64,000 nt of DNA from Pocillopora damicornis (lineage: Eukaryota): assembly GCF_003704095.1 (NCBI RefSeq), contig NW_020846166.1:248001-312000 (forward strand). Direction: 5' to 3'. The stretch's first letter is position 1. Each line of letters opens with the position of its first letter. Of the stretch, positions 7,801 through 44,066 are shown one piece after another. The position numbers were made by a program, and so were the translations under genes. The notes under the pieces were generated by a model, which was not told the DNA's origin, searched no databases, and saw nothing but the letters and a program-made list of their open reading frames with translations.

Positions 7801-10800
7801 GAGACCTCCTCCTCCTTCTTCTGTTGTGAGGGCTCCTGTGATGGTCTGCTTCTCTGTCGCTACCACTTGATTGCTTGCGCTGCCAGTCAGATTCAGAACG
7901 TCTAGGATCATATCGGGATGTCCTTTCATTCTTACACTCCTCATCTGAACTGGAATACTCTCGTCCATCATAACTGTCATTTGAGCACATGCTGTGTCTA
8001 CGATTGCTTCCTTTATAACAACTTCTGTCTCCATCAGAGCTGTAACTAAACTTCCGATAACTATTCTGTCTCTTATGGTCTTTATCTTTGTCAGTGCTCA
8101 TTTCCCTGTAGTGATACTCTTCATCACAACTGCTTTCGCCACCACAGCTCTCCTCACAGTACGCACCTCTATAGCGCTTTGGAAGTCTCCTCTTTCTGTC
8201 TGGTGAATGATCATCACAGCTTAACCTTCTCTTGTGTGAGTAACGGTTTGGACCAGTTTCTTCAGAAATAGAGTGATGATGATTCTCCATATCCAGAGAC
8301 TTTTGAGGACTACATTTCAGAATAGACTCTTTCAAAGTATTGTCATCTTCTGGTTTCAACTGAATAGGTTTTCTCAGTGGAGATCCACTACAGGCATAGT
8401 TGTGATCTGTTGCATGATTATCAACATGGGAATTCTTAACAGTTTTAGAATTTTCATCCTGTCCTTTTACATCATTGTGAGAAGATCCACCACTCGTTGT
8501 TCCATGAACTTCTTGATTTTCTTTATTTTCAGCAGAATGAAAATGTGCAGAATTCTCCTCAGCAAGGGAAGGTAAGCCCTTATTTTCTACATCACATGGA
8601 ATGTCAAATTTCAGCTCATGTTTCTCAGCAAATGAATTGATCTTGTCTGAAACAGTCTGCATTTCACAAGATGTATCTTTCCTGAAATTATCAAAACATA
8701 CAATGCCCCTTAGGAGATTTCCATTTCACAACTTGCAAAAAAAGACAGCAGCACCTTGCTATAAAACAACTTCAAAGCAGGTTACAGCAACATCTTGTTG
8801 GTATGAAGAAAATAATTTTAGTGGAAATTCATATCAAAGAACACAAACTTAAAAAAAAAATCTCAAAATCAAAATCTGAGAGCAACAAGAAAATGATTCC
8901 TTAAGATTTGTCCTTGAAGCAATAGAGGCAAAGTGCTTCATAACAGCAACCTGTAAACTAGCATCTCTCTCAGGATTCAACCTATTACTGTGTTTTGTAA
9001 ACGCTTAACACTCCAAGAGTGATAAGCATCTAATTTCTCCTTGCTGTATCATCCTTGAATCACATATTAAGATGATGAGAATAGAGAAAATGATCACCAA
9101 CTAAAGATGCTCTTGATTGTTAAACAAATTCTCCATGTCAGCACCTTAGGAAATGTATAGAGAACAGTATGGAGAATATGCATACTGATGTTAAAGTCTA
9201 AAGGGTTCAGACAAACACTTACAGAGAGGAAAGCTGAGGTGTGGAGCAATCCATTGAACCTATAGAGACAAACATGGAAAAAAAATTTGAATAAATTGAC
9301 AAAATTTACAACCACTAAACTAAACAGTCACAAAACTAACAGTTTTCTCTCATGCTTTTGCAATACCACAGATATTTCTATTAAAGCCTAGTCCCTACAT
9401 TGCACCTCTTGGGAAAACAGGAATTAGATAATTAACAATCCCTTGTCACACTAGGAGTCATCTTATAGTGCCTTTGACATTTTGACGGTACACAGGACCC
9501 TTGCCACATAGTAACTTAGTTTCACAAACAAGTTTGCTGCAGAAGAGCTTCAGACTTCAAAATCTTGGGAGACTTTGCATTTNNNNNNNNNNNNNNNNNN
9601 NNNNNNNNNNNNNNNNNNNNNNNNNNNNNNNNNNNNNNNNNNNNNNNNNNNNNNNNNNNNNNNNNNNNNNNNNNNNNNNNNNATTTTTCTTTGTACTGTG
9701 CTTGTGACAATAGAAAAAACACCTTCAACTCCCTGAAGCAATTAACATTAAACCTCTCCCTATAATATCCATACAATATTCAGCAAACAGGGATTGAAAA
9801 TACTCAAACTTGTTAGGAAGACGTTGCTATCTAGATCTACCAATGCATTGTGGTAACTAATTTTCAAGGAAAATGTGTTGCAGTTTGCTGGGGAGGATGA
9901 TTAGGAGTAGGATCTTGGGAGTTAAAGGATTAAACAGTGAAGTTATTAATTTTATTATGTGATCAAAATGTCAAGTGTGGCCCTCAGCAAGAGGGGATTA
10001 TGTGTAGCCTTGAGAAAATCAGGAGTCAAACAATTTAAACTGAGTGATGTACATGCCATGCTTTCTCTAAGACATGTGGTCATTTAACGTTTTTTCCTCT
10101 GATGTTTAATCTTTGAGGCCAGTTTAATTTTGGTCTTTGGTTGTCTTGAATTATAGTACCAGCCAAGTGAAAATAAAAAAATTGGCTATCAAAAGTCATG
10201 ATTCCCGAGCAACCCCAGGGAAAATATTAACCTATGTATATAAATACATTAATTTCACAAAAGTAAAGGATTTTTTGGGTTTGTTACAGCAAAGAGCAAG
10301 GAAAAAAATTAGTAGTACTGTTACTTTCTTTTGGCTTATTCTGCTCTCAAAGGTTTCTTTTTTAGCTGGTCCTTCACAATTCATTTTCTCTAAACCTTTT
10401 TTTTTTATGGTTCAAGACCATCTTTGGAATTTCTTACCTTCATTGAACTGGAATAAAAAAAAAAATCAAGAACTCACGACTAACCTTCAATGAGTTCACC
10501 ATCTTCTAACTCGTTCGAAGAAGTTCCCTTTCTCTCGATGTCGTTCTAGTATCCCGAGAAAAAAAAAAAAAACACTTTGTCTAACAAAGACTCACATGAA
10601 GTCACGTACACATTTTTAAGAACATTGACATAGCATTTTGATCAAACATATGATAATAGATATATAATCATAAAGACAATCATCTACAAAGGTAAGTTTA
10701 ATGAGCTCACTGTAATGAGAAATTGATCAAGATTCTGGATTCTGAGTCGAGTCAACTTTTCAATTTGAGAAAGACATTGTATTTAAAAAAACCCGAAGTA

Positions 10801-17600: not shown

Positions 17601-20264
17601 ACATATCATCGACGTCAATTAAATTACGATACCTCACAATACACACTGTTCCTTTTTTTTTTTTAAGTTACTGGCATTGCTTTTTCTCCAGGTAGATGTG
17701 GTGATTAATCCAAACGATCTCAAAGTTGATACATTTAGAGCGTCTGGGTAAGTAACTTAACAACAGTACAAAAACACCGGCAGTGAAGTGCTTCTCAAGC
17801 AGGTTTTTCTGGTTTGTTTCAGCGCCGGCGGTCAGCATGTCAACAAAACTGATTCTGCAGTCAGAATAACTCATTTACCGACGGGGCTTGTGGTCGGTTG
17901 TCAAGAGGAACGATCTCAGATTCAGGTATTATATGATAAGCTGCATTATGTTCGCATTTGGATTTTTTCCTTCTTATGATCCACAAGAGCACAGGCGCAT
18001 AGATGACATTCCACCAACAGAAATTTGCTTTGTTATCATTTAAAACAAGGACATTTCATGTTGCCGCTGGTCTGCACAATAGTAGATCATAGATTATGTT
18101 GAAATGTGGTAAGTACATCATTGACACACTCGATGCGACGGCATTGGTTTCTCTTCGTTACGCTACGTGATTGGCTCAGAATATGCGTGCAATCTTCTTA
18201 GCCAATCAGATGCAATACCGAAACCAATCGCTAATTGGTCGCTCGCGTTTTCCCGCGCTTTGAGCAGTTTCTTAATTTAGCACGATTTGCATCATCCCGA
18301 TTTGCCGTTGTGATTACTCCTGTAATTGTTTAACGATACTCTTTAAAATTGTATTCTAAGTTTTCCCCCCTTTTCAGAATCGACACAAAGCCTTACAAGT
18401 GTTACGAACGCGTCTCTATGATATACAGCGTCGACAACTGGATTCAGAAAGATCTGAAGCCCGCAGAAAACAGGTCAGCAGTAAAACGGAAAGTCTGATT
18501 AACTGATGCGATAAACACGAAACACAGCGGTCAAACGTTTGCGCATGCGAACTTTATATTGGCTAGTTAACGTGCTTTCAGGCTGTCAGAACCAATCGCA
18601 CGAGCTGACAAGTCACGGTGTTTTAAAACGGTATAAACTCTAGGATAAATCTGAGAAAAAAATTTAAATCAAAAGGATGATCGAAAGAGTAAGCTTTATG
18701 TTCGAAAGGTTCGAGTTCTTCTTTTCCCTGCATTTGTTGTCTTTTACAGATTCTATGAGCGTTCAACCCTATGTTTTCCTTTGAGATTTTGCGCGGGAAA
18801 CTGGAGCGCGGCCGGCCAGATTGGATCCCCGTGCGCGTGTCCAAAGTTTGACCGCTGTGTTGCTGCTGTAGCACGAAGCACGAGAGGTCCTTTTATTCAT
18901 TTTAGTCAGGCTGGTCATTCTGGGCGTCTATTTTCCGTAACCGAAGCATTTTACGAAGTTTCTAGATTGTTCGCTGGTGCACATTTGTACTCCAGGGTGC
19001 TGGAGAGAGGAACTTTTAAGTCTCTTCAGTTTGCCCAATAACATAAAACTATGATCGTGCTCTTGCGAAAGGGAGTTTGCCAACTTGTACTTGAGTTCTA
19101 ATTTGCTCCTTGTGGTAGCTCCTTTATTCCTGGCTGTTGTGTTTACCTAGTTTGCTGTTTTACGACACTCAATCAAATGTGGCCTGAAACGAAACGTTTT
19201 CCATTTAATTAGATCGGGAGTGGAGGGAGATCAGAAAAGATAAGGACGTACAACTTTCCTCAGGTGAGTCCAAGGTTTTCCTCTGTTTAGGTTTACTATG
19301 GTCTTTTTATGTGAGAAATATTCAGTCGATACATTGTAAGCTTTACAAGAACGATAGAAAGTTGTCTGTTTTGCACATTTCTCCGCTGTTGTTACTTTAT
19401 AAGAAAATCCAACTCATAAGTCAGGAAATTATGGTGAAATTTGAAGTGTTGGAGACATGATTTCGAATGTTTGATGTTTGTCCCCAATCGCTATGATCAC
19501 CTGACCTCAACTGGTCAACTCTGGTCGAGAATTGTGTCATATCTCGCTATAATCACCGAGGTGATTAGAGCAGGAGCGCTACTTTTCAAAATGGCTGTAT
19601 TGTGTTTTGTCAATGTTTTTCGAGGAAGTGATAAACGCAATAGTAGAAAATTGAAATTCGAAGAGCACAAAAGATGCTACTAACGTAACGCTCTTGTAAC
19701 GTAACGCTCTTCGAAAGTAACTTGAATTTTTTACTGACTGATTAAAATAAACCTAGTGGAAATTGTGTGCCTATCTTGAGACGAGTAATCAAAACAACCA
19801 CAACAAAATATGCGTAGTGCTTTCTCTATTTATGAATAGAGAAAGTAGTGCGCATATTTTGTTACAAAATAATTTCAACCACGTAACTGATTTACCAGAA
19901 AATTCGAAAGCAACGGAACGATTGTACCAATAACAATTATTGTCCTCGGGCTCAATGCATATTGTTGTTATTCAAAAATATTCACTTCGCCTTCGTGAAT
20001 AATTGTAAAGCTATGGCGGTGATAAAAAAAAATTGCACAGCTTCTTGTGCATATCCTCCTTCAAAGTCTAAAAACGAGCATGTCTTCCCCAAGGGCCGAG
20101 TGACTGATCACAGAATAGGTATGACTGAGCATGGAGCAGAACTGTTTTTGGAGGGAGAAGACAAACTCAATCACATGATCACGGCTTTGCAGTCTCAACA
20201 CGAAGCCGAGGCGCTACAGGAACTGACCAGCCAATATGACACCGGGAAGAAAGGGAATAGGTAA
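11615..20264 (+). CDS. MTRF1L: Mitochondrial peptide chain release factor 1-like (mtRF1a), 14 exons
   Basis: GT-AG exons in consistent phase: 11615-11699, 11809-11915, 12969-13070, 13627-13731, 14761-14833, 15327-15384, 15990-16059, 16735-16782, 16934-17038, 17692-17747, 17823-17925, 18378-18473, 19213-19263, 20094-20264. Motifs [23 protein letters not shown] (RF1-type PxT), [18 protein letters not shown] (GGQ), [16 protein letters not shown]; basic N-terminal presequence. Confidence 0.95.
14255..14466 (-). mobile_element. MITE family A copy (reverse)
   Basis: TAACCCTTTA...TAAAGGGTTAA termini; reverse complement of the family A body. Confidence 0.75.
15495..15688 (+). mobile_element. MITE family D copy
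   Basis: TTAACTCCCAGAAGTG...AATACTCAAAC...GGAAATGTGTAGCAG...GGTTAA. Confidence 0.7.
16238..16465. mobile_element. MITE with perfect 17-bp TIRs, nested in a SINE-like repeat
   Basis: GGGGCCCGTTTCTCGAA ... TTCGAGAAACGGGCCCC; the flanks (about 16125-16237 and 16466-16510) are two parts of the repeat at 24250-24547. Confidence 0.8.
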
Positions 20265-21100: not shown

Positions 21101-23124
21101 TTTTCTATTGTTAAGGAAATCTTAATTTGAGGCTTATAAATATTACAGTGTCCGCAATTATCCCCGAACCAAAGTTTATCATGGCATGATGTTATTTCAA
21201 TTTTTTGTAGGTCGATCAAAGATTTAGTTTCTTTCCTTAGCAGGGCAAGAGTTGAACATTAATATTAATCGCTGATACGTTTTGTGTCAAATTGAGGAAA
21301 ATATACAATTTCGTATCTATGTCTCTATTTACACTTAAAAGATATAATATGAGAGATTATATGCGACCATACGGTACGGAGACTTAAGAGGTGTTTTTAC
21401 CTCTGTATCTATATAGGAATTGATAGCTTATTTCAAAATTATTAAATGAAAGGGCTGGTTTATGAACTGAATATATGTTTTTTTTCATAATTTATTTTTA
21501 TTCTCATAAGTGTTGGAGCATTAGCTTTTTTGTTTTGTTTCTTCACTAAAAGGTATATTTGCATATTTGCCTTTTTGTAAATTCTTAATTTCCTGCAAAA
21601 TTGAAATGATAAACGTACAAAGAGAATTTCTATGTGTGGTAATTTGACGATAAGATATAACGATAAGATGTACCTGCTACCGGCGGAGCAGTAAAAGATT
21701 CCCTCTCGCTTCATTTTTCGTTTCCAGTATAATTTCCGGGAAATGTGTGGTTTCTTGTGTTTATGAGCCTAGATACACCTGTATTTACTATCTATGGGAA
21801 CGTGTTGACTAGGCTAGAAGCACGAATCACCCGTTTCAATGGGCATATCTTTAAAATTTGTTTTGTTTTTTTTTCCTTTGTGATGGAAAAAGCGCACAGC
21901 AGTCAAAACAATGCAGGTAGATTTGAAATGTAATTTGGTGTAAATCAGAGACATTTCGATGAATGTCGGCGAACGCTCTCACATTTTAAGAGTTTTAAAG
22001 TTTTAATTTAAAAGTTTAGAATGAATATGCATGTAAGCCAGAGGTTCTGTTATTAATTAGCGTCGTTTTGTTAATTGTAATCGAGTTTATGAAACTGTTT
22101 TGAAGAAAAGAGAAAGAGAGAGAAATAAGAGAAACAGAGGAAAATATTTTGTTTGTTTATGTGCATGATGTCGAGAAGAAATGAATATTTTCCAATGATT
22201 ACAATTTTTACCATTTAATTCATCCACAAGGTCCGTCTTGATAGTGTTTTATGTTTGTTTCTAGAAAGAACTTGTCTAAATAAAAATAAAAATTAAAATT
22301 ATTTTGTCTCAGGGAAATTTTATGATAGTTTGTATAACCGGATGATAATCTCCCCCAAGAAAGATCAGTTTTGGACCTTTTACAACGAGATCAATTCGTT
22401 CGCCGATTTCGATGGCATGTTTAAATTAGTACACGAGAGATGCTGTTTTTATATTTCTTAATTTGTCTGTTCCAGTTACCGAAAAAAAAACAACAGTAAT
22501 AAGAGCAAAACATATGTTGTGTGGATAAAGTAGCGAGATTTAATAATTGCTTTCTTGTATCCTACTGAGGAAATTTCTATTGTCATGTCCAGTATTTATC
22601 GTCTCCCCCGTTTATTGACCTCGTCAAGCGGCGAGCGAAAATGACTATTATCTTTTTCAATGATGTTATATGCAAATCACGATGTCACGAGTTTCAACAT
22701 TAATACAAAAAGCGAAATTTCAAAATCCTGTTGGCTTAAAGTGGCTTTTTCAAGTCTTTCCAATAAATGTTAAACAAATATTCGGGTTCGCTGGCACATC
22801 GGATGAGAAAGACTGTTTAGCATTTGGCATTTATCAGGTGTGTATTTACGTAGAGTATAACAGATTTAAAACAGAAATTCTTTGACCTGCTGCAGTCAAA
22901 AACGAAATCAAACAGTCACACGGTGGAAACGTGCGAGGTGGTTGAGCGCCGCAAATCAGCGGTTTATCTTCCATGAAATTTTAATATAACAGAGGAGTCG
23001 ACCCATTAAGACAGAAACAAACATATTACCGCTTGGTAATTAGTTCTTGTCTTATTCAGCCATCATTTGGTCGCGGGAAGCTTTTTTTTTCGAGAACATT
23101 ATTTCGGATCAGTGGCACACTACG

Positions 23125-24219
23125 ATGAAAGCAGCGCTGGATAATTTTCTCAAAAACCACGCTGATGCCTTCGTACGATATCGTCGAAAGAAGCTTAAGG
23201 AAATCGAAAACCTAATTAATCCATTATTGGAAGAAGTGAAGAAACTGGATGGAAAATTTGACTTTGAAATGGTCAACCCTAAAAGCTTTTATACCATCAA
23301 GTCACCCATCCATTACGAAGTACTTCTGATTTTTCACGGGGTGGACCCTGAAGAGATTTCTGTCGAAGACGGGCAAACACCAGCGGGATTTGCGCTAGCG
23401 AAACTTACTGGTAAAAAAATGGTGTCTAAGTGGAAATTTTGCAGTGGGAACAGTAATCCCAGCAAGGTTTACATGTCGGCTAAGATTGTCAGAGAGAAAC
23501 TCTTCGAGCTTGTAAACCGAGTGATCAGCAGCTCGTCTTTTCTGGAATCACTCGAAGGGAGTAACTTTTGTGTAGAAGTCGTCGACGACGACGATGTGAT
23601 TTCAATGCGGGTCAGCGGACAAGACGTTGAAGCATACAGCGTTGATCTTATCCCAGCAATTCCTTATCCAGGACGCTGGGTGCTCTCTGCGCATGCGTGG
23701 GAATCCAAGCAAGCTGATTGGATGAGCAAGACTTTGAAGGAAGAAGTCATTAAGACCGGATTTCACTTGGTAGCCAGGCCATCACCGAGTAGGTCATCGT
23801 ACCAGTGGCAGATTGATTTTCCTGGCCCCATGAGGAAGCTACTGGAAATAGACATGGGCTGTCGCATAAAATGTCTGCTTATTCTTGAGATCATTATGGG
23901 CGACATGTACTCTCAAAGGGATGCATGCGACAGTTTCCAACTCGAAACTCTCGTGTTGCGTATAACAGAACACTATCCAGTGAAATCGTTCTGGAGCGAA
24001 GAAAAATTCTCTAAACGTTTCTTAGACACCATAAGAGAACTGCAACGATGTCTCTCAGAAAGACACCTGACGCAGATTTTTATCCCAGGCGTGAATTTGT
24101 TTCGAGATTTCGACAAATTGAGTTTGAAAAGTTGCGAAGAAGTTGTTCAGAGTGTTTTAGAAAACCCAGAAAATTTCCTGAACACTTTCGAACTGTTCCA
24201 ATATACAACTGCTTTGTAA
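23125..24219 (+). CDS. Mab-21 domain (cGAS/MAB21L-like nucleotidyltransferase fold) protein 1, intronless, 364 aa
   Basis: First ATG at 23125 within ORF 23047-24219. Motifs KSPIHYEVLL, YMSAKIVREKL, VDLIPAI, W..SAHAW..W....KEEVIKTGFHLV, GCRIKCLLILE, CLSERHLTQIFIPGVNLF match the Mab-21 family layout. Confidence 0.9.
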   Translation: MKAALDNFLKNHADAFVRYRRKKLKEIENLINPLLEEVKKLDGKFDFEMVNPKSFYTIKSPIHYEVLLIFHGVDPEEISVEDGQTPAGFALAKLTGKKMVSKWKFCSGNSNPSKVYMSAKIVREKLFELVNRVISSSSFLESLEGSNFCVEVVDDDDVISMRVSGQDVEAYSVDLIPAIPYPGRWVLSAHAWESKQADWMSKTLKEEVIKTGFHLVARPSPSRSSYQWQIDFPGPMRKLLEIDMGCRIKCLLILEIIMGDMYSQRDACDSFQLETLVLRITEHYPVKSFWSEEKFSKRFLDTIRELQRCLSERHLTQIFIPGVNLFRDFDKLSLKSCEEVVQSVLENPENFLNTFELFQYTTAL

Positions 24220-24249
24220 CCCAGAAAAATAGTAGGCAAAGTCTTTACT

Positions 24250-24547
24250 TAAGCCAGATAGCCCATCCAACCCGAGTTTTATCCCAGTTTCCTTAGCATG
24301 TAGCGAATAGGAAGTTACCTCTCCCCCTCTCCCCCTTACGTGGGATTTCAGTCCATCACAAGGTTACCCCTCGCCCAGGCATTTCATCGGGGTTCCCTGA
24401 CATTTTTCCTGCACCTTTTTATACCTCCGGATGGAGAGAGGCACCGTGAAAGAGATTTGTTTTCCCAAGAAGACAACACAATGACCTGGCTAAGTCTCGA
24501 ACCCAGACCTCTCAACCCGGAATTCAGCGCACACTGCGTCTCCCACC
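24250..24547 (-). mobile_element. tRNA-derived SINE-like repeat
   Basis: B-box-like GGTTCGAGAC on the minus strand (24495-24504); shares TCGAACCCAGACCTCTCAACCCGGA with 16476-16500. Confidence 0.55.
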
Positions 24548-25918
24548 GAAAGATCGTTAGAGCTGAGTACTTTGACGTCTTTATTCTCAAGATCTAGAGT
24601 GACCAGGAGGCAATTTCTCCCAACAATAACACTACACTAACAAGCCGATGGGGAATGACAATTGAGATAATAAGGGGATAATAATTTCAGTGATGAAAAA
24701 CTAAATTCTCAGAACTACCATTATAGGAGATGCGTGGAAGACAGCAAGGATAATTATTATAGTGATCTTTCAGATCTTGCTTTTGTATGATGTAGCTACC
24801 ACGTTCCACTGAACGATCTTTATCTGGGATCGCTTATTTTTCAGTCAGCATCTCTGTAGGGAAGCTTTAAGATAAAAAGAAACCTTAGAAAAATCATTTA
24901 CTTAGGTACACAATCAAAAAGAGGGAAAAAAAATTAATAAGGAACGAAGAACTCTTCGTGATGGGTTCCAAGTGACAGACTTGAAAAAAAGGCTACATTG
25001 GTGATGTAAATGAAGCGAAACTGTTTGAAAATGAAGCTTGCACGGGCAATATTAAATCATATATTTACCAAGCCCGCTTCCCGGGAAGTTGTAACAATTT
25101 TATTTTAAATCGTAGTGCACCAGGAGCCCATCATAAGCGCTCCCGAGTACACTGAGAAGAGTTTTGTTTATAAGTAACGTACCCGAGACCTCTTTGCTTG
25201 ATTTTTTCCAAAGATTAATTACCAGCTTTCCGCTAGGATTTTCAGAATTTTAAACAATATTTCTCTATCGTTCCTTTGTACAATAACCAAGGCGATAGTG
25301 ATCGGTAAATACGTTTCCCCTAAAGAATACCTATCAGTACTGTGGGCTGAAGTTTTTTTAAACAGTAGACGCTTTGATATCTGTCCAAAAGAGCCGGCGA
25401 GGAAATAAGAATATTTGAAATCAGATGGAAAGCAAAATGGAACCCACCAAATACATTAAATTTATGAAAAAATGATGCCAAAACAAAAACAAAAAGAATT
25501 AACGAGAGGACGGAACTGTGGTCAATTAATGTTTAATATGAGGATTAATGTTTCATAAGCGTGGAGAGTTTTTGTTCCTGTTACCACACCAATCAAATAT
25601 ATGTTATTTTATTCTATGAACGATTGATGTAAACCAATACTTTGAAGTCTCCCACACGTCTAGCGATGAAATTTATCTTTTTTAAAGAATTTTCCGAGTT
25701 GAACTGCCGGCGTTTAATGTACTGAGCAATTGTCTGCACCATCAACGATTCTTTTTTGTTGAGAGCGTAAAGAATTTTGAAATAATACAGTTTTCTAACC
25801 ACGCGAGTGAACAGCCGTTGTTGTGCTTAAAGATAACACAGTTTTTTGCTCTCAACGACCGAAAAAAGTTTTGAGAACCGGATTCTGTAGTGGGTGAAAC
25901 TACGCTTCATCATTAGTA

Positions 25919-27901
25919 ATGGCGGAAAATTTCGAACTTTCAGCATCAGACAACGAGCACTGGTTAAACGGCTTTCTCCAACAAAACTGCGAAGAGGCGA
26001 GAAAACGAGTTTTAGAAGAACGAACTATGATGAATTTTGCGGAAGACGGAGGTTCTCAAGACGAATGTGATCTGTCTGGAATGTTCAACTTTAAGGAATA
26101 CGAAGAGTTCGACGAACAGAGAGTCTATGAAAATATAGATTTTTCGATTCTGTCCGAAACAAAACGTGTGACGTTCAACGGTGGTATATCGACTCCCGAC
26201 CTAGATGTAAAACCTGACATGGGTATTGTGGCATTGAACGGTAATGTATCAATTCATGAAGGTAAAAATCGATCAGTACACGACACTAACGATCGTCTAT
26301 CGACTCCCAGCGACGACACTATCCGCTACCGAGAGGATTCTGACACGAATTTTTCGACATTCAATACATCGATTTTCAAAAGTGACAAACGGTCTGAATT
26401 GGACGCCAATAGTACTTTATCAACCCTCAAGGACGAAAAACGGTTAGAGAAGGAGGTTCGGCATAGTAAAGACAATCACTCCATTATGAATGTCACGACC
26501 CTGGACGACAGCATGTTGATTTTCAAAGATAAAGGACGACACGACGCCACCCAGGATCCAGTCAATTCTATTCCACTAATTCAGACGGGCACGTTGTATT
26601 GTGATGAAATATTGACGAAAGGCGATGAACCACGAGCTAGCCTTGACGATTATGGAAAACGCGTTGGTAACGCGCAGCCACCTTCCGAGCACGCTCCGCC
26701 CACGACAAACAATGGAGAGTTAGCCTTGGGCTTTGAAACCGAACTGGTTGAGGTGCCAAGTATGGGAATAGCTCACCCTAAAGAACAACTCTTGAAGGCA
26801 ATAAACGACTTCAACAAGAATGTGGTAGAGATTCAGCGAGTTCGTTTTAAGCAGATGATGTTCCAGATCCAGGAAATAGTCAATGAAATCTTGGCGGAAG
26901 TAGAACGACTTGAAAACACTTTTAAATTCCAAAGAATGAGCCCTGACAGTTATTATGAAATGAAGTCGCAAAACGAAGTGGACATACTTGTTGTCCTGGA
27001 AAACATTTCGCACACAGAATTTATCATCGAGGATATGAAAACACCAACTGGATTTGCACGAATACGTATGACGTCAGCATACATGACGTCATTAGATGCA
27101 ATGAGGTCATCAGATGTAACGTCAGAACCTAATATGGGGTCGTCAGGTGGCACCATTTTCCATTGGTGCACGGACACTGATTCTGGTGAGGTCTATTTCT
27201 CACCTAAAAAGTTGTGCATGAAATTTGCTGCCTCAGTTTCTCGAGCAGCGGCGAAAATTTTACGGCATGGCTCGAGCCCACTCAGAAAGAAAGTGACGTT
27301 TTCGGACAGAGAAGAGACATTTCCTTTCGTCGTAAATCTTATACCTACAGTCGCCTGTCCGCAGACCTGGCCGCTGTGTGCGTACTGGCTCAGAAATTAC
27401 ACTAAACAATGGCCATCGCCACACGTCAAAGATGAAGTCGTTAAGGGGAGAATGCATCTCGTTGCCATGGTGACTAGCCAAGAGTCTGATCCTCTATGGC
27501 GAATAAGCTTTTGCTCCGCACGTCGGCGTCTTCTCCAGGCTGATGGTGATGGAAAAAAGAATTGCTTGCGCGTGTTGAAAGTTCTCCTCGTAAAAGACTT
27601 GTCGAGACCCAAAGGCATCACGCCGCTGTACCTAGAAAACATTGTACTATGGGCGAGTAGGAAGCACTGGCAAGAAGAGGAATGGGCCGAGTCTATGTTA
27701 GCCGACAGATTCTTGGAGATGTTGGTGGCGCTGCACAAATGTCTGGAAAATAAGGATTGTTATAACTTTTTTGTGCCAACAATGAATCTTTTCAATGAGT
27801 TGAAACCCGATGCTTTGAAAGTGTTGGCTTCGAAAGTTGAAGACATCTTGCGTGATCCCTTCAAATATCTGAAAACCCAGGGAGCCATACCCACCCCCTG
27901 A
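25919..27901 (+). CDS. Mab-21 domain protein 2 with a long acidic N-terminal extension, intronless, 660 aa
   Basis: C-terminal ~375 aa: KSQNEVDILV, YFSPKK, VNLIPTV.CP.TWP..A.W......WP, MHLV, WRISFCSARRRL, CLRVLK, CLENKDCYNFFVPTMNLF. N-terminal ~285 aa is D/E/S/T-rich low complexity. Confidence 0.92.
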   Translation: MAENFELSASDNEHWLNGFLQQNCEEARKRVLEERTMMNFAEDGGSQDECDLSGMFNFKEYEEFDEQRVYENIDFSILSETKRVTFNGGISTPDLDVKPDMGIVALNGNVSIHEGKNRSVHDTNDRLSTPSDDTIRYREDSDTNFSTFNTSIFKSDKRSELDANSTLSTLKDEKRLEKEVRHSKDNHSIMNVTTLDDSMLIFKDKGRHDATQDPVNSIPLIQTGTLYCDEILTKGDEPRASLDDYGKRVGNAQPPSEHAPPTTNNGELALGFETELVEVPSMGIAHPKEQLLKAINDFNKNVVEIQRVRFKQMMFQIQEIVNEILAEVERLENTFKFQRMSPDSYYEMKSQNEVDILVVLENISHTEFIIEDMKTPTGFARIRMTSAYMTSLDAMRSSDVTSEPNMGSSGGTIFHWCTDTDSGEVYFSPKKLCMKFAASVSRAAAKILRHGSSPLRKKVTFSDREETFPFVVNLIPTVACPQTWPLCAYWLRNYTKQWPSPHVKDEVVKGRMHLVAMVTSQESDPLWRISFCSARRRLLQADGDGKKNCLRVLKVLLVKDLSRPKGITPLYLENIVLWASRKHWQEEEWAESMLADRFLEMLVALHKCLENKDCYNFFVPTMNLFNELKPDALKVLASKVEDILRDPFKYLKTQGAIPTP

Positions 27902-29158: not shown

Positions 29159-29371
29159 TTAACCCTTTTCACTCACTTGAGTGACCAATACAGAATTTCT
29201 CCTTACAACATCCACACAATATCAGGCAGAGTAGTGATGAGAATATCGAAAAACATCAAATAAGGAATTGTTAGTTAATCCAATACCAAATTCTCTGAAC
29301 GAACATTGTGAGAATTGTATGACAGACAACGAAGAGAGTTATAAACGAGATCTTAGGAGTAAGAGGGTTAA
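29159..29371 (+). mobile_element. TTAA-flanked MITE, family C
   Basis: TTAACCCT...AGGGTTAA; body GAGTGACCAA..AGAATTTCTCCTTACAA..GTGATGAGAATA..CCAATACCAAATTCTC shared with copies at 34213, 34620 and 40389. Confidence 0.75.
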
Positions 29372-32900: not shown

Positions 32901-35900
32901 AGCTGAAGTGTTCAAAATCAAAACTCTAACCTGCAAAGGCATTCCTGGGCTGGGAGGAAGTGTAGAGACTCTGGCAACTCGCACAACAATGGTCTGAAGT
33001 CTCATTGATTGCTCTTCTGCATATGATAGGAACTGGACATGAAAAATCAAAATCTTGTCAGCTATAATTTTTCAAATTGTTACTGTTAAAACTACAATCT
33101 GACAAAAATTTTAAACCAGATAATAGACCTAATGCATGAATGGCAGACTCGACTAGTATTCTTTTANNNNNNNNNNNNNNNNNNNNNNNNNNNNNNNNNN
33201 NNNNNNNNNNNNNNNNNNNNNNNNNNNNNNNNNNNNNNNNNNNNNNNNNNNNNNNNNNNNNNNNNNNNNNNNNNNNNNNNNNNNNNNNNNNNNNNNNNNN
33301 NNNNNNNNNNNNNNNNNNNNNNNNNNNNNNNNNNNNNNNNNNNNNNNNNNNNNNNNNNNNNNNNNNNNNNNNNNNNNNNNNNNNNNNNNNNNNNNNNNNN
33401 NNNNNNNNNNNNNNNNNNNNNNNNNNNNNNNNNNNNNNNNNNNNNNNNNNNNNNNNNNNNNNNNNNNNNNNNNNNNNNNNNNNNNNNNNNNNNNNNNNNN
33501 NNNNNNNNNNNNNNNNNNNNNNNNNNNNNNNNNNNNNNNNNNNNNNNNNNNNNNNNNNNNNNNNNNNNNNNNNNNNNNNNNNNNNNNNNNNNNNNNNNNN
33601 NNNNNNNNNNNNNNNNNNNNNNNNNNNNNNNNNNNNNNNNNNNNNNNNNNNNNNNNNNNNNNNNNNNNNNNNNNNNNNNNCTGTTAAGTAAAAGGGTCTT
33701 TGCACCTGTCATATTATAAAGTTTGTGAGAGGTAGGTGTTAGAAGACTTTGTTAAAATATGAAAACTGGTCCAAGAACTGAAGCCAGCTCACTTTGTTAG
33801 GAGGGACAGCACCAATGGTCAAGACATTATCACCTTTAAAGGAATGATACCAAGTCAGTGAGTTTAAAGAAAGGGGTGGTTGTTAATACACATTTTTTAG
33901 TGCCTTGATAATGGTTCCCATTCTCTTGAAAATCATAGGTTTCCTAACAACAGAGTGCCCCCTGCACCAATTTACACTCTCACTTACCTTAACTAGGCAT
34001 CTGCAAGTTCCATGAATGAACTCAGTCAAGTCAAACTCAGTTTCAAATAAGGATACTTTTCTGAGAAAAAAGTACAGCATGATAAAATTAACATGAAGGT
34101 ACTTAAAAATAATTCATACCCATTGGAAATGATTGTGTAATAAATACAGCAGTAAAATAATTTTGCACAAAAGTGACTGCCACATCTGTTGTAGAGTGTT
34201 TTGCTTTAAGCCTTAACCCTCAAACTCACATGAGTGACCAAGACAAAATTTCTCCTTATAGCATCAATACAATATCAACCAGATAAATGATGAGAATAAA
34301 AAAAATATCAATCTGGGGATTATTAGTTGATCCAATACTAAATTCTCCAAACTAACATTATAAAAATTGTATGGTTGAGAGTAAGGAGAATTACAAATTT
34401 CATCTGGGAGTTAAAGGGTTAATCCCCTAAGAGTGACTGGGATATAATTTCTCCTTAGCTAAATCAAACAGTAAGTTCATGAGAATAAGGAAAATGATGG
34501 CAACTAAAGGAGCTTGTGATGTCAAGCAAAATCCTCCTTTTCAGTACCATAGAAAATGTAAAGGGAACAGTGTGGAGAATATGAACATTAATCAGGTTAA
34601 ACATTTCTCTGTGATTCTGTTAATGGCTTTAAGTCTAAGATCAATTTTGTAATTCTCCTTACTGTCAACCATACAATTCTTATAATGTTAGTTCAGAGAA
34701 TTTAGTGTTGGATCAACTAATTATCCCCATATTGATATTTTTCTTTATACTCATCACTTATCTGGTTGATATTGTATTGATATTGTAAGGAGAAATTCTG
34801 TCTTGGTCACTCATGGGAGTTTAAGGGTTAATGATGTATGACAATTATCAGATAAATTTACCCCAGGATGGAATAAAATACCAAAGTGCATTGACTATGG
34901 TTTAAAAATAATGTGATCTTCATACCTTCCTTTGCGAATTGTAAGCATGATACCCTTTGCTGTTCTCTCATAGTTTTCATCAACATACAGCTCAACGTTC
35001 CTTGCTTCAGAGACAATGACGATGTTTTTAATGTAGAATTCCTGAGCCAAAGGGTGTGCTGTGAAGCTCATTTCACATGGGACTACATCACTGTGTGGTT
35101 TTGGTTGGGTTAGGATCACACCTGCTCCAGCTGTCTGAACACACCCCACAACAAGCTGATCCTGAGCCCTATGGAAAAGAAAAACAAAATAAACATACAG
35201 GAAACTGTAAAAGAAAACTGCCTAAAACATACAATAAAAATACAAGCACAATGGCTTAAATATGCTCCCTAGAGAATGACAGGAGATAGCTGTGAAACCA
35301 GTGTCACACTTGACTACATATCATAGAACTGCACAAGCTAAGTTTAGATTCCCTTGTTCTTTGATTCTCAGTTCTCAATCCTTGCTTCTCAATTATTAAT
35401 TTTTAATTCTTGATCCTCCAATTAAGTTTTGAGGATTGAGTATCAAGTTTCAAGTCAAGATTGTCAACTTACTATTACATTTGTGACACATGAAAAAGGT
35501 ACTTTCAGTTTAAAGTGTATGTAATGCATGAGTTTTTCTAAAATTTGTGCATGAAACAGGATTAGGACCCAAGCTTGCTACCTTCTTAGAACTGGGTTGT
35601 ATCAAAGAGAGATAATTAACATTAAATTCCATCACAAGCATGAGAGAAAGAAAAAACCTGGGTTGTTCTACCAACAGAGCTAAATAAAACTTGTTGGTAA
35701 GATGGATTATAAACTAATTCACATGCATAATGTTAGCTGCAAACTGTAGTATCAGCAATGACAAAAGCATGAAGATAGAGAAACTTATGAGCTCTGTTGC
35801 TGAAATGTATATCATGAATGCTTAGTAGAAAAAATTTTGGATGTTTCATTACAAATTTACTGCAATACAGCTTTGAAGAAGAAGTATATTACTGTACTTC

Positions 35901-38516: not shown

Positions 38517-39164
38517 TTACATAGCCCAGGCCTCGAGATCTTTCAGGTCATCATCATCACGCATAGTTTTGTTTTTCATTAACGGATCTGTCGATGGAAC
38601 GTTCGGTAATCCTGTGTTAGGACGTTCCATTCCAAGAAGTTCTTTGTTGAGACTTTCTTGTTCGATGGCTTCCAATTCGGCTTCGAGTCCTTCATCATCG
38701 AAGTCTTGATTCAGACCTACACCACAGATTGCCTCCGAAATCTCTTTAGAAATTTCTGTCTGTTCTTGAATATCATCCATAATGTCGTGAACATCCTCCA
38801 CATCGAGAACTTGATGAATGCTCTTCAGTGTTTTAGCAGCATAATTCATATTCTTCAAAACTTCGGTGTTTGTGTTAGCGTTTTCCAAGGCTTCACGCTG
38901 AAATTCTATGGTCGATAAAGTTCCATCAATCTGATTAAGCTGTTTTTCAAAGCGTTTCCGCCTTTTCAAGGCTTGCAGCGCAATTCTCTTGTTCGTTTTG
39001 GCGTGCTTTTTCGCTGTTGCGTTCTCCATATCGATTTTTTTCTCCAAGAATTCTTGCTTTTTCTCCAACATTTCCTCGGTCTGTCTCAGTTTTTGGATTG
39101 CATCTTCAGTTGTCGGAATATTTTCCTTATTCTTACCTCCAAACATTCGCTGCAATACACTCAT
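38517..39164 (-). CDS. CHMP4B: ESCRT-III subunit CHMP4/Snf7, intronless, 215 aa
   Basis: MSVLQRMFGG N-terminal amphipathic helix; AIQKLRQTEEML..KQEFLE; QLNQIDGTLSTIEFQREALENANTN; MIM2-like LPNVPS; C-terminal ALIX-binding LKDLEAW. True ATG at 39164. Confidence 0.95.
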   Translation of the reverse strand: MSVLQRMFGGKNKENIPTTEDAIQKLRQTEEMLEKKQEFLEKKIDMENATAKKHAKTNKRIALQALKRRKRFEKQLNQIDGTLSTIEFQREALENANTNTEVLKNMNYAAKTLKSIHQVLDVEDVHDIMDDIQEQTEISKEISEAICGVGLNQDFDDEGLEAELEAIEQESLNKELLGMERPNTGLPNVPSTDPLMKNKTMRDDDDLKDLEAWAM

Positions 39165-39344: not shown

Positions 39345-41716
39345 ATGGTGTTCAATATGGCGGTACGGACGCTGTGTATTGGCTGCCTTTGTGTAGTATT
39401 CTTCAGCTTTAAACCCACTCAATGTGAGCCATTTCAAGCGCCAAGTTATACCATTGACCTCGATCTTGCTCCAGAAGAAAGATGGCTCAATATTACCCAG
39501 AAATACCTGAAATACACTCCGAAGATTTTAGCAAATCTGCGAAAGAAGATTCCACCGTTTGCAATACCGCTTGCAGAAAAGCTTGCTGTTGTAATTGATA
39601 AACATTTCCCCGAGGAGTATAATAAAGAGATGATGGGTATATCAAAGGGACTTAATCTAAGCTTTTCAGACACAATACTTCTCAACATTTTATACGACGT
39701 AACAGCTTTTTGCACGAGTATCGTTGCACAAGACAAGGATGGAAGTGTTTTTCATGGAAGAAACCTGGATTACTCTTTTACAGATACGCTGCGGGATATA
39801 ACTTTCATATCCAACTTTCAAAGCAAAGGTGAACTATAAATTATTCTTTAGACAGTAAGTGTGCGATTCTTCTATCCTGTTCCGTCCAGCATGTAATATA
39901 AAATGAATAGTAATTGAACTCTCACATTCCTCGCACTGGTGTATAGCTCAGTGGAAAAAGGCTATGGTAGGAAATAACTGATCCGGTTAATAGGCAAGAA
40001 AGCTTATTTTGAGTGACAGTGACAGTGACAGTCTTTAAAATTCAAGGATTATTTGAATTAAATGTGCCAGTTCATAAGCTTCCGATGCGTTGATCAATTT
40101 GAAGAGTTAACGCCCCTTGGTAAGCATCATTCCTTGATGTGAAAATTTATCACATCATGTTGCATTTAGTAACTAAATGCAATAAATTTAATGATCATAT
40201 TCAATATTGTTTGAGAGAGATTGTCATTAATTTTTCAGTCTTTGTTCATTCACTGTTCATCAGCACTTCATGCTCTGCAGACAACAACTGTTTTATGATA
40301 AAGACAAGATCAGAAAATGTGACTTTCTACTCATTGACCAGAGTTGATTTGATCATTGAAGCCTTTAACACCTGAAATGCATAACCTTTTAACCCTTTAA
40401 CTCCCATGAGTGATCAAAATAGAATTTCTTCTGACAATATCCATGCAGTATCAAGCAGACAAGTGATGAGAATAAAGAAAAACATCAGTTAAGGGATTAT
40501 TTATTGTTCCAATACCTAATTCTCCATACTGCTATGATACAAATTGTATGGCAAACAGTAAGGAGAAGAAATAGTGGGATTTGGGAGTGAAACAGTTTAT
40601 CATTGGTCTTTATAGGTAAGGTGGTGTACACTGGTGTAACATTTGCTGGCCAGGTTGGTCTTTTGACAGCACAGCGACCGAACAGTCTCACAATCAGTCT
40701 GGATGAGAGGGACCGTGGCCACATATGGGATAATGTCTTTGAAGCTATCTTTAATAAAAATGCAATTCCTGTTACATTTCTGATTCGAGATGTGGTCAGC
40801 ACAGAAGGAATGGACTTTTCTCAAGCTGTGAAGAAAGTATCTCAAGTGTCCTTGATAGCAGCTAGCTATCTTATTTTAGGAGGAGTTAAAGTTGGGGAAG
40901 GTGCTGTGGTAACACGAGGCAGAGAAAAAACAGCTGACATCTGGAGGCTGAGTCAAGATGCAGCAAAGGAACCGTATGTACTTAACAAATAGATGTCATG
41001 TTGTGGTACATAATTTTATGTTTAGTGATATATCTCAGGTTATGTCAAAATGTGGAAGAAAACAAGAACACAAGAAAGAAAGTTGCACATAACATGGCCA
41101 AGTTTGTCGCTGATACTCTAACCCTAAGCATTTTGGTGTCTTCTGTGATCTATTACTTTCCAGATTTACAGAGCCACAGTAACATGGAACCAAATGAATA
41201 TATTTTATAAAAGAAAAAGAAAAAGGTTGTTGCTGGTGACATCATTTTTGTGTCTGTCCTTCAATAGGTCATAAGTAAGAACCAATCAAATGGTGTGTAA
41301 TTCAGCTTATTATCTACTAGTAAATACAAAGAGATTATGCAATTTTGAAACTTAAGAAAAGTGAGAAAGTACATATGAATTATGAGGTTTGAAAAGGAGG
41401 TTAATTTTATCCTGAACTTTACAAACTACCCTCATATGGATGGTTACATCTCAGGATTGAATCATTTTTGTGTTGAATATGCAGGTGGTACCTTGTAGAG
41501 ACCAATTATGACCATTGGACCACACCCCCTCCATCAGATGATCGCCGCGACCCGGCTGAGAAGGCATTGAAAAAGTTGACTCAGGCAAAACTCACCCCTG
41601 ATGCACTGTTCAATGTCATGTCCATCCATCCTGTACTGAATAATGAGACTGTCTACACAACTATCATGCAGGCAAAAAATGCTGATCTATTCAATACTTG
41701 GATTCAGACGCCATAA
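39345..41716 (+). CDS. NAAA: N-acylethanolamine-hydrolysing acid amidase (acid ceramidase-like Ntn hydrolase), 3 exons
   Basis: Exons 39345-39828, 40616-40973, 41485-41716. Signal peptide; IDLDLAPEERW; catalytic F/CTSIVAQD...HGRNLDY (NAAA-type rather than ASAH1-type CTSIVAED..GRNMDF); ISLDER; WYLVETNYDHW...DDRR; PVLN..TVYT. Confidence 0.92.
40389..40599 (+). mobile_element. MITE family C copy ending just before the NAAA exon 2 acceptor
   Basis: TTAACCCTTTAACTCCCATGAGTGA...TTGGGAGTGAAA. Confidence 0.75.
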
Positions 41717-43112: not shown

Positions 43113-44066
43113 TTAAACCTTTGTGGGTGGAAATTTGCTAGAGCGATCCCTTAGGAATACGTGGCGATACTTGGGCAATCTCCATGCACACACAAAGGGA
43201 TTTAAGGCAGAATTAAGGAAAAGAAATCGCGAAAACACAATCTCCAACTTTCTAAAAAGTATTGATCGTTTGCACGACTGGCAAAAGTACATTAGATGTA
43301 ACGCAACGAATTCAGGTACGACTGTCACGTAGAATAACGCCAACACAATCAGAATTGTCACGACCATGTTCCTTTCGCGGTCTAACGCTTGTTTGCTTTT
43401 CATCGTGGCGGTGATTCCAGCTTCTTTAAGTTCGCGTTTCCTTTTTCCCAAAGCGAGGAAGACTTTACAGTACATGATTGTTAACAATATGGCGGGGAAC
43501 GATGCGTGAGTATGCGCATACACGATCTTGAATATTTCTTCAGGAACATTTGTTAACGGTAGAAAGCACACAGTCGCGGCAATTCCCCAGATACTAGCGA
43601 TGCAAATCCTAATTCTTTCCTTAGTCATGTTGGTTCGGTATTTAAACGGATGCATTACAGCAATGTAGCGATCGCAGGACAGAGCTATGATAGACCCACT
43701 ACTGACAAAGAGTGATAATCCAAGCACCAAACGGATTATAAGATCCAGAAACTCGGGAACGTCCAAACCTTGATATCGATAAACATCTTTCACGCCTACA
43801 AGAGTACCAGCAATCAATCCAACCGTTAGATCAGAAACACACAAGTTTGCGATCAGCAAAGACGGAGGCGTTTGAAGTAGGCGACGAGTGTCACGACTAA
43901 TTGTCCACAATAGCGCTCCGTTCGCTGTTGTAGTAACCACAGACAGAGTGAAATCCACCACCGCTAGAACGAGAAAGAATATTGGGCTAATCATCGTCAA
44001 TGGATCATCTGCTGTTTGTACAGAATACTTCGGTGAAGAAATTGTATGCTCCATTGCTAAAGTCAT
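43113..44066 (-). CDS. Orphan class A (rhodopsin-like) GPCR, intronless
   Basis: Seven hydrophobic segments; TM1 ANG, TM2 NLCVSDL, TM3 DRY..V.HP..Y, TM4 W, TM5 P......Y, TM7 NSALNPFVC. Confidence 0.9.
   Translation of the reverse strand: MTLAMEHTISSPKYSVQTADDPLTMISPIFFLVLAVVDFTLSVVTTTANGALLWTISRDTRRLLQTPPSLLIANLCVSDLTVGLIAGTLVGVKDVYRYQGLDVPEFLDLIIRLVLGLSLFVSSGSIIALSCDRYIAVMHPFKYRTNMTKERIRICIASIWGIAATVCFLPLTNVPEEIFKIVYAHTHASFPAILLTIMYCKVFLALGKRKRELKEAGITATMKSKQALDRERNMVVTILIVLALFYVTVVPEFVALHLMYFCQSCKRSILFRKLEIVFSRFLFLNSALNPFVCAWRLPKYRHVFLRDRSSKFPPTKV

Follow-up and report, generated by a model that had tools for sequence, protein, structure and literature searches.

A linked pair of Mab-21/cGAS-fold pseudo-enzymes with predicted PDZ-binding and PP1-docking motifs in the coral Pocillopora damicornis

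The DNA analyzed here, called the window below, is a stretch of 64,000 nucleotides from the stony coral Pocillopora damicornis (RefSeq assembly GCF_003704095.1, contig NW_020846166.1, positions 248,001 to 312,000 of the forward strand), and all coordinates are positions within it. Two neighbouring genes in the same orientation, gene 1 and gene 2, each encode a protein with the two-lobed Mab-21/cGAS fold. An earlier reading based on the letters alone (the sequence-only reading) had described them as a tandem pair of pseudo-enzymes with differently broken active sites. The features to which we refer are as follows.

23125..24219, + strand: gene 1, a single-exon Mab-21/cGAS-fold pseudo-enzyme of 364 amino acids (Pfam, AlphaFold2 model, fold matches)
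23281..23319, + strand: shortened loop of gene 1, from K53-S54 (no GS) up to H63-Y-E65 (first acid lost) (alignment)
23365..23472, + strand: EDGQTPAGFA motif of gene 1 and the near-invariant hairpin FCSGNSNPSKVY (residues 105-116), a candidate protein-binding surface (conservation)
23644..23646, + strand: D174 of gene 1, the third Asp of the triad (Asp in 17/24 orthologues)
23887..23946, + strand: E255 and E274 of gene 1, at both phosphate-binding Lys positions (alignment)
24205..24216, + strand: TTAL of gene 1, a predicted C-terminal class I PDZ-binding motif in a free tail (conservation, model)
22744..25159, + strand (taken from the open reading frame): longest RNA contig across gene 1, unspliced, reaching ~0.9 kb past the stop codon (to 25634 in another run)
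25919..27901, + strand: gene 2, single-exon, 660 amino acids (653 in the allele of the RNA runs) (Pfam, model, RNA)
25961..26041, + strand: conserved N-terminal helix of gene 2, residues 15-41 (model, orthologue comparison)
26045..26728, + strand: linker of gene 2, acidic, predicted to be disordered, fast-evolving (model, dN/dS)
26732..27877, + strand: Mab-21/cGAS-fold domain of gene 2, residues 272-653 (Pfam, model, fold matches)
26945..26983, + strand: D343-S344 (no GS) and E353-V-D355 of gene 2 (alignment)
27284..27301, + strand: RKKVTF of gene 2 (residues 456-461), a PP1-type RVxF motif within a loop modelled at low confidence; the corresponding part of gene 1 forms two beta strands
27335..27337, + strand: N473 of gene 2, replacing the third Asp (acidic in 0/33 orthologues)
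27578..27637, + strand: K554 (kept) and E573 (Lys to Glu) of gene 2 (alignment)

Both proteins match the Pfam families Mab-21 (PF03281) and Mab-21_C (PF20266) above the curated cut-off (E 1e-15 to 1e-22) and share 27% identity over 376 amino acids; the orthologue of gene 1 in Stylophora pistillata is 85% identical to it. Their best sequence matches in the Protein Data Bank (PDB) are Sp-cGLR1, MAB21L1 and MB21D2 at 46-81 bits, with cGAS at no more than 32 bits, and Sp-cGLR1 (PDB 8gjy) leads for both (E 1.5e-18 and 6.3e-22). The AlphaFold2 model of gene 1 has a predicted local distance difference test score (pLDDT) of 91.2 and a predicted template modelling (TM) score of 0.90, and it matches MAB21L1 with TM scores of 0.77-0.82, Sp-cGLR1 with 0.78 and cGAS with ~0.7. 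The model of gene 2 contains a folded domain from ~272 to 654 and the helix 15-41, with the disordered linker between them, and superposes on MAB21L1 with Z 35.5 (root-mean-square deviation 2.3), on Sp-cGLR1 with Z 32.4 and on cGAS with Z 27.6. The suggestion that the pair lies closer to MAB21L than to cGAS is thus borne out by the scores of both models, yet it loses its edge since Sp-cGLR1 is nearly as close. The N-terminal helix of gene 2 is recognizable in corals and in P0099/P0100, not in the orthologues of Nematostella or Actinia. It looks like the first part of the spine helix of MAB21L, and an atlas search with it gave no usable match.

Active cGAS-like receptors (cGLRs) have been defined by Li et al. 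by a G[S/G] activation loop and an acidic triad [DE]h[DE] X50-90 [DE] (PMC9980059). Both proteins show the homology over both lobes and the predicted structural homology that this definition also includes, but neither the GS loop nor the full triad occurs in any of the 24 gene-1 or 33 gene-2 orthologues. The first, second and third acids of the triad are present in 1, 24 and 17 of the gene-1 orthologues, respectively, while in gene 2 the first two are kept in 31 each and the third in none; the window itself has H63/E65/D174 and E353/D355/N473. At the equivalent of cGAS K439 an acid is found in 21/24 gene-1 and 32/33 gene-2 orthologues, and the equivalent of E383, the Glu that binds the ribose of the donor nucleotide, is acidic in 0/24 and 0/33 (residue numbers from PMC4897736). 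The residues named in the sequence-only reading are all in place (K53-S54, H63-Y-E65, D174, E255 and E274 in gene 1; D343-S344, E353-V-D355, N473 and E573 in gene 2, with K554 kept), and the substitutions fall in the catalytic columns when the two proteins are aligned with MAB21L1, Sp-cGLR1 and GS-bearing relatives. The ED..TP.GFA motif is likewise common to both proteins, and the loop is indeed short, with 8 residues from the Ser to the first acid versus 11 in Sp-cGLR1. The catalytic motif is thus lost in every orthologue examined, which supports the classification of both as pseudo-enzymes, and synthesis of cyclic dinucleotides by either protein appears highly improbable from these residues.

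Degenerate Mab-21 proteins as such are not rare. Inactive members of the family were already noted in a 2009 survey (PMC2794190), and at least four other open reading frames (ORFs) of the same genome lack GS (L022, L023, L027 and L043). A census of 35 ORFs of this genome with a GS..ExD regular expression returned 14 strict matches, a number that includes spurious matches, misses long loops and is not usable as a rate. Five peptides of the pair were looked for in six supplement files of the cGLR paper (PMC9980059), and no metazoan row in these files carries them.

Gene 1 ends in YTTAL past its last helix, and the last four residues are unstructured in the model (pLDDT 47). A terminal [ST]-x-[LVIF]-COOH is found in 30 of 31 gene-1 proteins and in 4 of 7 paralogues of the clade, compared to 0/84 gene-2 proteins, 0/7 proteins of the Rhopilema-type clade and 2/123 other Mab-21 proteins, with 3.4% expected from composition. 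T362 and L364 are invariant in 20/20 close orthologues, and the preceding residues vary in deep members, where the tail reads STAF in Nematostella and NTAL, TTAL or DTHL in three other deep lineages. With its free and conserved S/T-x-hydrophobic C-terminus the tail agrees with the class I PDZ-ligand consensus x-S/T-x-(L/F)-COOH (PMC8244488), and we predict that gene 1 probably binds a PDZ scaffold through this T-x-L. Its best-conserved window of 12 residues is not the active site but the hairpin 105-116 (99% on average over 20 orthologues), which aligns inside the G96-Q138 region of MAB21L1, a protein-interaction surface in both MAB21L1 and MiD51 (PMC4897736).

In gene 2 the candidate docking element lies within the domain. 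In place of the two strands of gene 1 (148-165) the model of gene 2 shows a coil with pLDDT <50 (457-465), and this stretch contains an RVxF motif of the kind bound by protein phosphatase 1 (PP1). The strict pattern [KR][KR][VI][ST][FW] occurs in 91/94 gene-2 sequences (35/38 distinct windows), including those of Nematostella and Actinia, and the loose pattern [RK]x0-1[VI]{P}[FW] in 93/94, so that the motif is conserved nearly throughout. At the matching position the strict motif is present in 30/33 gene-2 rows versus 0/181 others (24 of gene 1, 7 paralogues, 9 of the sister clade and 141 other rows). V459 is invariant (38/38), F461 is kept in 97% and K457 in 89%. The distance from the motif to the next strand varies from 11 to 31 residues, and the motif is kept despite flanking insertions in anemones. 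RKKVTF of the window fits the stringent six-residue version of the stringent/extended PP1 consensus (PMC4794898), as do 36/84 gene-2 proteins and 2/121 others. In Ki-67 and RepoMan, a phosphomimetic residue at the S/T of RV[S/T]F lowers PP1 binding 25-30-fold (PMC5005033). PP1 is encoded in the genome. We tentatively predict that gene 2 docks PP1 through RKKVTF, at odds just short of even. The origin of the motif may lie in a structural strand that gained basic residues while the neighbouring strand was lost.

A prediction of the complex between cnidarian PP1 (P0398, residues 7-300) and the gene-2 domain (272-654), run without alignments or folded controls, scored 0.00 twice and speaks neither for nor against docking. 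A second KRVTF in the gene-2 linker (residues 82-86; 26162-26176) reads KRATF in the close representative P0022 and is therefore not conserved. AKAP, SILK and MyPhoNE patterns were also considered in gene 2 (by eye), and none fits well.

The pair is old and linked in other corals and apparently in Nematostella. Gene 1 is followed by gene 2 on the same strand in three of six fetched loci (L057, L058 and L059), and the remaining three stop 0.2-1.2 kb after gene 1. The Nematostella orthologues carry consecutive accessions (XP_001634773.2 and XP_001634774.2) and are apparently adjacent to each other; gene-1 and gene-2 clusters also apparently share contigs for P0103/P0102 (three contigs), for P0105/P0099 (two contigs) and for three coral pairs. 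Synteny likely extends to the left neighbour with a release factor 1 (RF-1) domain exon (17761-20236, + strand), since L055 and L059 carry three more matching pieces on the upstream side of gene 1.

Both ORFs are intact and intronless, as had been read from the sequence, with open frames and unspliced RNA contigs. They are covered by contigs of three studies whose records state polyA or oligo-dT, and by those of one run whose RNA nature is a guess (of the 21 runs listed, 6 that are RNA or guessed to be so and 2 of unknown kind were compared; contigs are blind to strand and level). Among the contigs listed there are no joints inside either ORF. No RNA covers 22352-22635, and no listed contig bridges the two ORFs, which weakly hints at separate transcripts. 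At 27878-27880 the window has CAG and the five RNA or guessed-RNA runs covering the site have TAG, while two runs of unknown kind agree with the window; the window allele of gene 2 consequently continues for seven residues past KYLKT, the usual end of most orthologues. Both genes are under purifying selection. The ratio of non-synonymous to synonymous substitution rates (dN/dS) of gene 1 is 0.14-0.16 against six orthologous loci on metagenome contigs, with synonymous divergence (dS) of 1.2-1.6 and thus near saturation, and 0.24-0.35 between locus pairs with dS of 0.18-0.34 (a few upstream non-coding codons included). Gene 2, compared in two loci, has a ratio of 0.12 as a whole, and its domain (0.085-0.088) evolves more slowly than its linker (0.29-0.42). 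Together with the linkage, the values of 0.09-0.16 agree with the proposal of an old duplication still under selection.

Around the two genes, the non-coding stretch 25517-25650, 5' of gene 2, is 73% identical in L057 and possibly a promoter or 5' untranslated region element. A repeat lies directly 3' of the gene-1 stop codon (24279-24530). In L059 (4433-4475) the gene-1 orthologue shifts frame around residues 310-319, either by an assembly error or in a broken allele.

We propose, with a probability of roughly 55%, that both genes encode non-enzymatic signalling adaptors, gene 1 being held on a PDZ scaffold and gene 2 recruiting PP1. The PDZ tail and the RVxF motif, both missed in the sequence-only reading, point to such a role on the basis of their conservation. 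Gene 1 would be tethered to a PDZ-domain scaffold via T-x-L and would offer its conserved hairpin to a partner, while gene 2 would bring PP1, through the RKKVTF loop, to the target of its domain or of its N-terminal helix. A basophilic kinase phosphorylating the S/T within RVxF could switch PP1 docking off, as in Ki-67/RepoMan. The folded domain itself would serve as a binding surface for a substrate or ligand, like the dead fold of MiD49/51. The linkage of the pair is compatible with joint action of both proteins.

Several observations weigh against this proposal. V459 and F461 may be packed in the sheet and thus be unavailable, with VxF as a leftover structural strand, because V-T-F of scleractinian gene 2, 14 residues ahead of the position of the third Asp, stands in register with the V-T-L strand of Sp-cGLR1, and because 9/9 sister-clade proteins have V/I-x-F in the same stretch, where the basic residues are absent. 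K/R-K/R-V-S/T could also be merely a kinase site. The stringent consensus is limited to the 36 of 84 gene-2 proteins mentioned above, although 42 of the 48 misses form one near-identical QKRVSF set; the strict motif is absent from 3/38 distinct windows, and the Phe from one. The counts include related sequences and represent about five to nine independent lineages, and for the tail some of the background proteins are fragments whose C-termini are perhaps not real. The gene-2 domain may bind a ligand, because it is basic (isoelectric point (pI) 8.65) and keeps K554. Finally, MAB21L1 lacks GS and the third Asp as well, and its authors leave activity possible (PMC4897736).

The alternative that survives best, though rather unlikely, is that the two proteins are developmental regulators like MAB21L whose platform pocket binds a nucleotide or RNA, with VxF as a leftover strand and the tail incidental or only localizing. 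MAB21L1 is the top match of both models, and gene 2 keeps basic residues at several positions that contact CTP in MAB21L1 (alignment by eye; PMC4897736). The comparison of models may however be biased towards MAB21L1, the structure of which (2016) is older than that of Sp-cGLR1 (2023), and the equivalents of K255, K248 and S252 are Glu, Ile and Leu in gene 1. The trees separate the single genes from MAB21L. In a mixture-model quick tree of 36 rows, a single group of 18 rows unites gene 1 and gene 2 with several paralogues and the clade to which a Rhopilema member belongs, with a Shimodaira-Hasegawa-like approximate likelihood-ratio test (SH-aLRT) support of 98, and MAB21L is a separate clade with support 100; two other trees support the group containing the pair with 94 and 85. 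Approximately unbiased (AU) tests reject a union with MAB21L for gene 1 (p 0.020) and gene 2 (p 0.0014) alone, while the whole group as sister of MAB21L is compatible with the data (p-AU 0.235). Supports are SH-aLRT values from quick trees and FastTree, the mixture-model tree and the AU tests used 36 of 47 rows, and the trees were built without vertebrate cGAS, MB21D2, MAB21L3 and MiD51 and without named MiD49, ITPRIP or TMEM102 proteins; 'mab-21-like 2/3' and similar database names are assigned automatically. All clade members with a species name are cnidarian. By these trees the pair belongs to a clade apart from MAB21L, and the genome has a true MAB21L of its own (L012/L023); neither gene is a MAB21L orthologue, which weakens the MAB21L-like role considered earlier.

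Two relatives in the trees deserve mention. The short-loop clade has a third representative in this genome, L003/L027 (G000:C1423), which is without GS, first acid or PDZ tail. The sister clade of gene 2 (P0116, P0117, P0119, P0122, P0123, P0127 and P0130, with one cluster member from Rhopilema) has long N-terminal extensions, a conserved helix before the domain and a still more degenerate active site.

Slightly less probable is an immune role, in which the proteins bind dsRNA or dsDNA (double-stranded RNA or DNA), cyclic dinucleotides or active cGLRs as decoys or modulators and damp or tune cGLR-STING signalling. Sp-cGLR1 is the top sequence match of both, the genome has at least 57 Mab-21_C matches, the pI of the gene-2 domain is within the range of nucleic-acid-sensing cGLRs (>8.5), and a basic patch is kept on the spine helix of gene 1 (R20 in 95%). 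Gene 1 however has a pI of 5.9 (5.8-8.7 across 31 gene-1 proteins), which makes nucleic-acid decoy activity less likely for it than for the gene-2 domain. Slow one-to-one orthologues from corals to anemones are also unlike what we would expect of a host-pathogen arms race, the neighbours are housekeeping-type genes, and the PDZ tail and RVxF would be left unexplained. The pair was not found in four supplement files of a Nematostella immune-cell paper, a set that may lack its expression tables. The nucleotide or nucleic-acid binding suggested by the sequence-only reading accordingly finds little support for gene 1, because the donor-nucleotide residues are changed and the pI is 5.9, but is possible for the basic gene-2 domain.

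Atypical nucleotidyltransferases with a remodelled site or a protein substrate seem very unlikely: the near-constant second acid (24/24 and 31/33), the mostly kept Ser of the loop, the E-x-D and one Lys of gene 2 and the activity left possible for MAB21L1 (PMC4897736) are set against orthologues that never combine all three acids, that carry the opposite charge at the phosphate-binding Lys in 21/24 and 32/33, and that have all lost the ribose-binding Glu. Seven of 24 gene-1 orthologues, including Nematostella and the other deep members, lack the third Asp, so that across the alignment the complementary damage seen by the sequence-only reading is not a conserved feature. The catalytic triad of this fold lies on neighbouring strands of one sheet, which makes completion in trans implausible. 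An obligate heterodimer whose two broken sites complement each other into an active or regulatory enzyme is thus the least probable reading and catalytic complementation unlikely, despite same-orientation linkage in 3/6 loci, the apparent adjacency in Nematostella and RNA contigs of both genes in the same runs, as GS is absent from both, the second Lys position is acidic in nearly all, and the two genes are not clearly closest relatives (exclusive sisterhood weakly rejected, p-AU 0.04, borderline).

Among known systems, the proposed adaptor pair would work most like MiD49/MiD51 (MIEF2/MIEF1), which is also among the structural matches; the two proteins are not cGLRs by definition and not orthologues of MAB21L1/2. 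In MiD49/51 a cGAS-like nucleotidyltransferase fold acts as a protein-recruiting adaptor, with a disordered region before the domain as in gene 2 (PMC3926961). MiD proteins differ by an N-terminal membrane anchor, by binding ADP/GDP and by recruiting Drp1, whereas in the pair a membrane helix is not evident and the candidate docking elements are the PDZ tail and RVxF. MAB21L1/MAB21L2 are the top structural match of the pair and share with it the missing GS loop, the altered third acid and the lack of a demonstrated activity (PMC4897736), but they form the separate clade at ~22-24% identity; MAB21L1 keeps E238, K255, Y272 and K275, most of which are changed in the pair, and the MAB21L rows examined have neither PDZ tail nor RVxF. 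Sp-cGLR1 and cGAS have the two-lobed fold in common with the pair, which lacks their GS loop and triad and has a loop shorter by three residues. Similar to gene 2, Ki-67 and RepoMan carry an RV[S/T]F core with a phosphorylatable S/T (PMC5005033), and neurabin couples PP1 docking to the recruitment of PDZ ligands (PMC12185105). In Ki-67/RepoMan and neurabin/spinophilin, however, the motifs either belong to long disordered regions or neighbour a PDZ domain, whereas RVxF of gene 2 is a loop within a dead cGAS-fold domain and the neighbouring gene 1 would provide a PDZ ligand, not a PDZ domain.

Elsewhere in the window, matches were obtained for a PAAT-like protein (34898-35221, - strand), Snf7 (38517-39164, - strand), an NAAA-like protein (39345-39839, + strand) and a rhodopsin-family G protein-coupled receptor (43113-44066, - strand). 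An ORF of 358 amino acids at 7586-8662 (- strand) has no Pfam match, and a repeat at 29168-29350 attracts contigs to a summed depth of 15,000-43,000 in all four runs.

Mab-21 proteins with a dead active site have long been puzzling, MAB21L1/2 being without defined biochemistry, and the cGLR survey removed proteins without an active site. The clade described here is old, conserved and apparently unstudied; in the literature searched we found no published work that deals with these two genes or describes RVxF in any Mab-21 protein. It offers two mutable docking motifs, and both orthologues are present in Nematostella, a genetic model. If gene 2 does bind PP1, it would be the first cGAS-fold regulatory subunit of PP1 in the literature searched and a second route from the cGAS fold to an adaptor. 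A bolder and distinctly improbable extension is an ancient cnidarian two-gene module that uses the cGAS fold as a phosphatase-recruiting receptor, in which PDZ-anchored gene 1 would pair with gene 2 and RVxF would be exposed to PP1 upon ligand binding or clearing of the kinase site. This would amount to a split, neurabin-like PP1 holoenzyme made of cGAS-fold parts, in which dephosphorylation would take the place of cyclic dinucleotides as the signal. Even if PP1 binding proves false, the two genes would still form a clearly delimited pair of cnidarian pseudo-enzymes, one of them with a likely PDZ tail.

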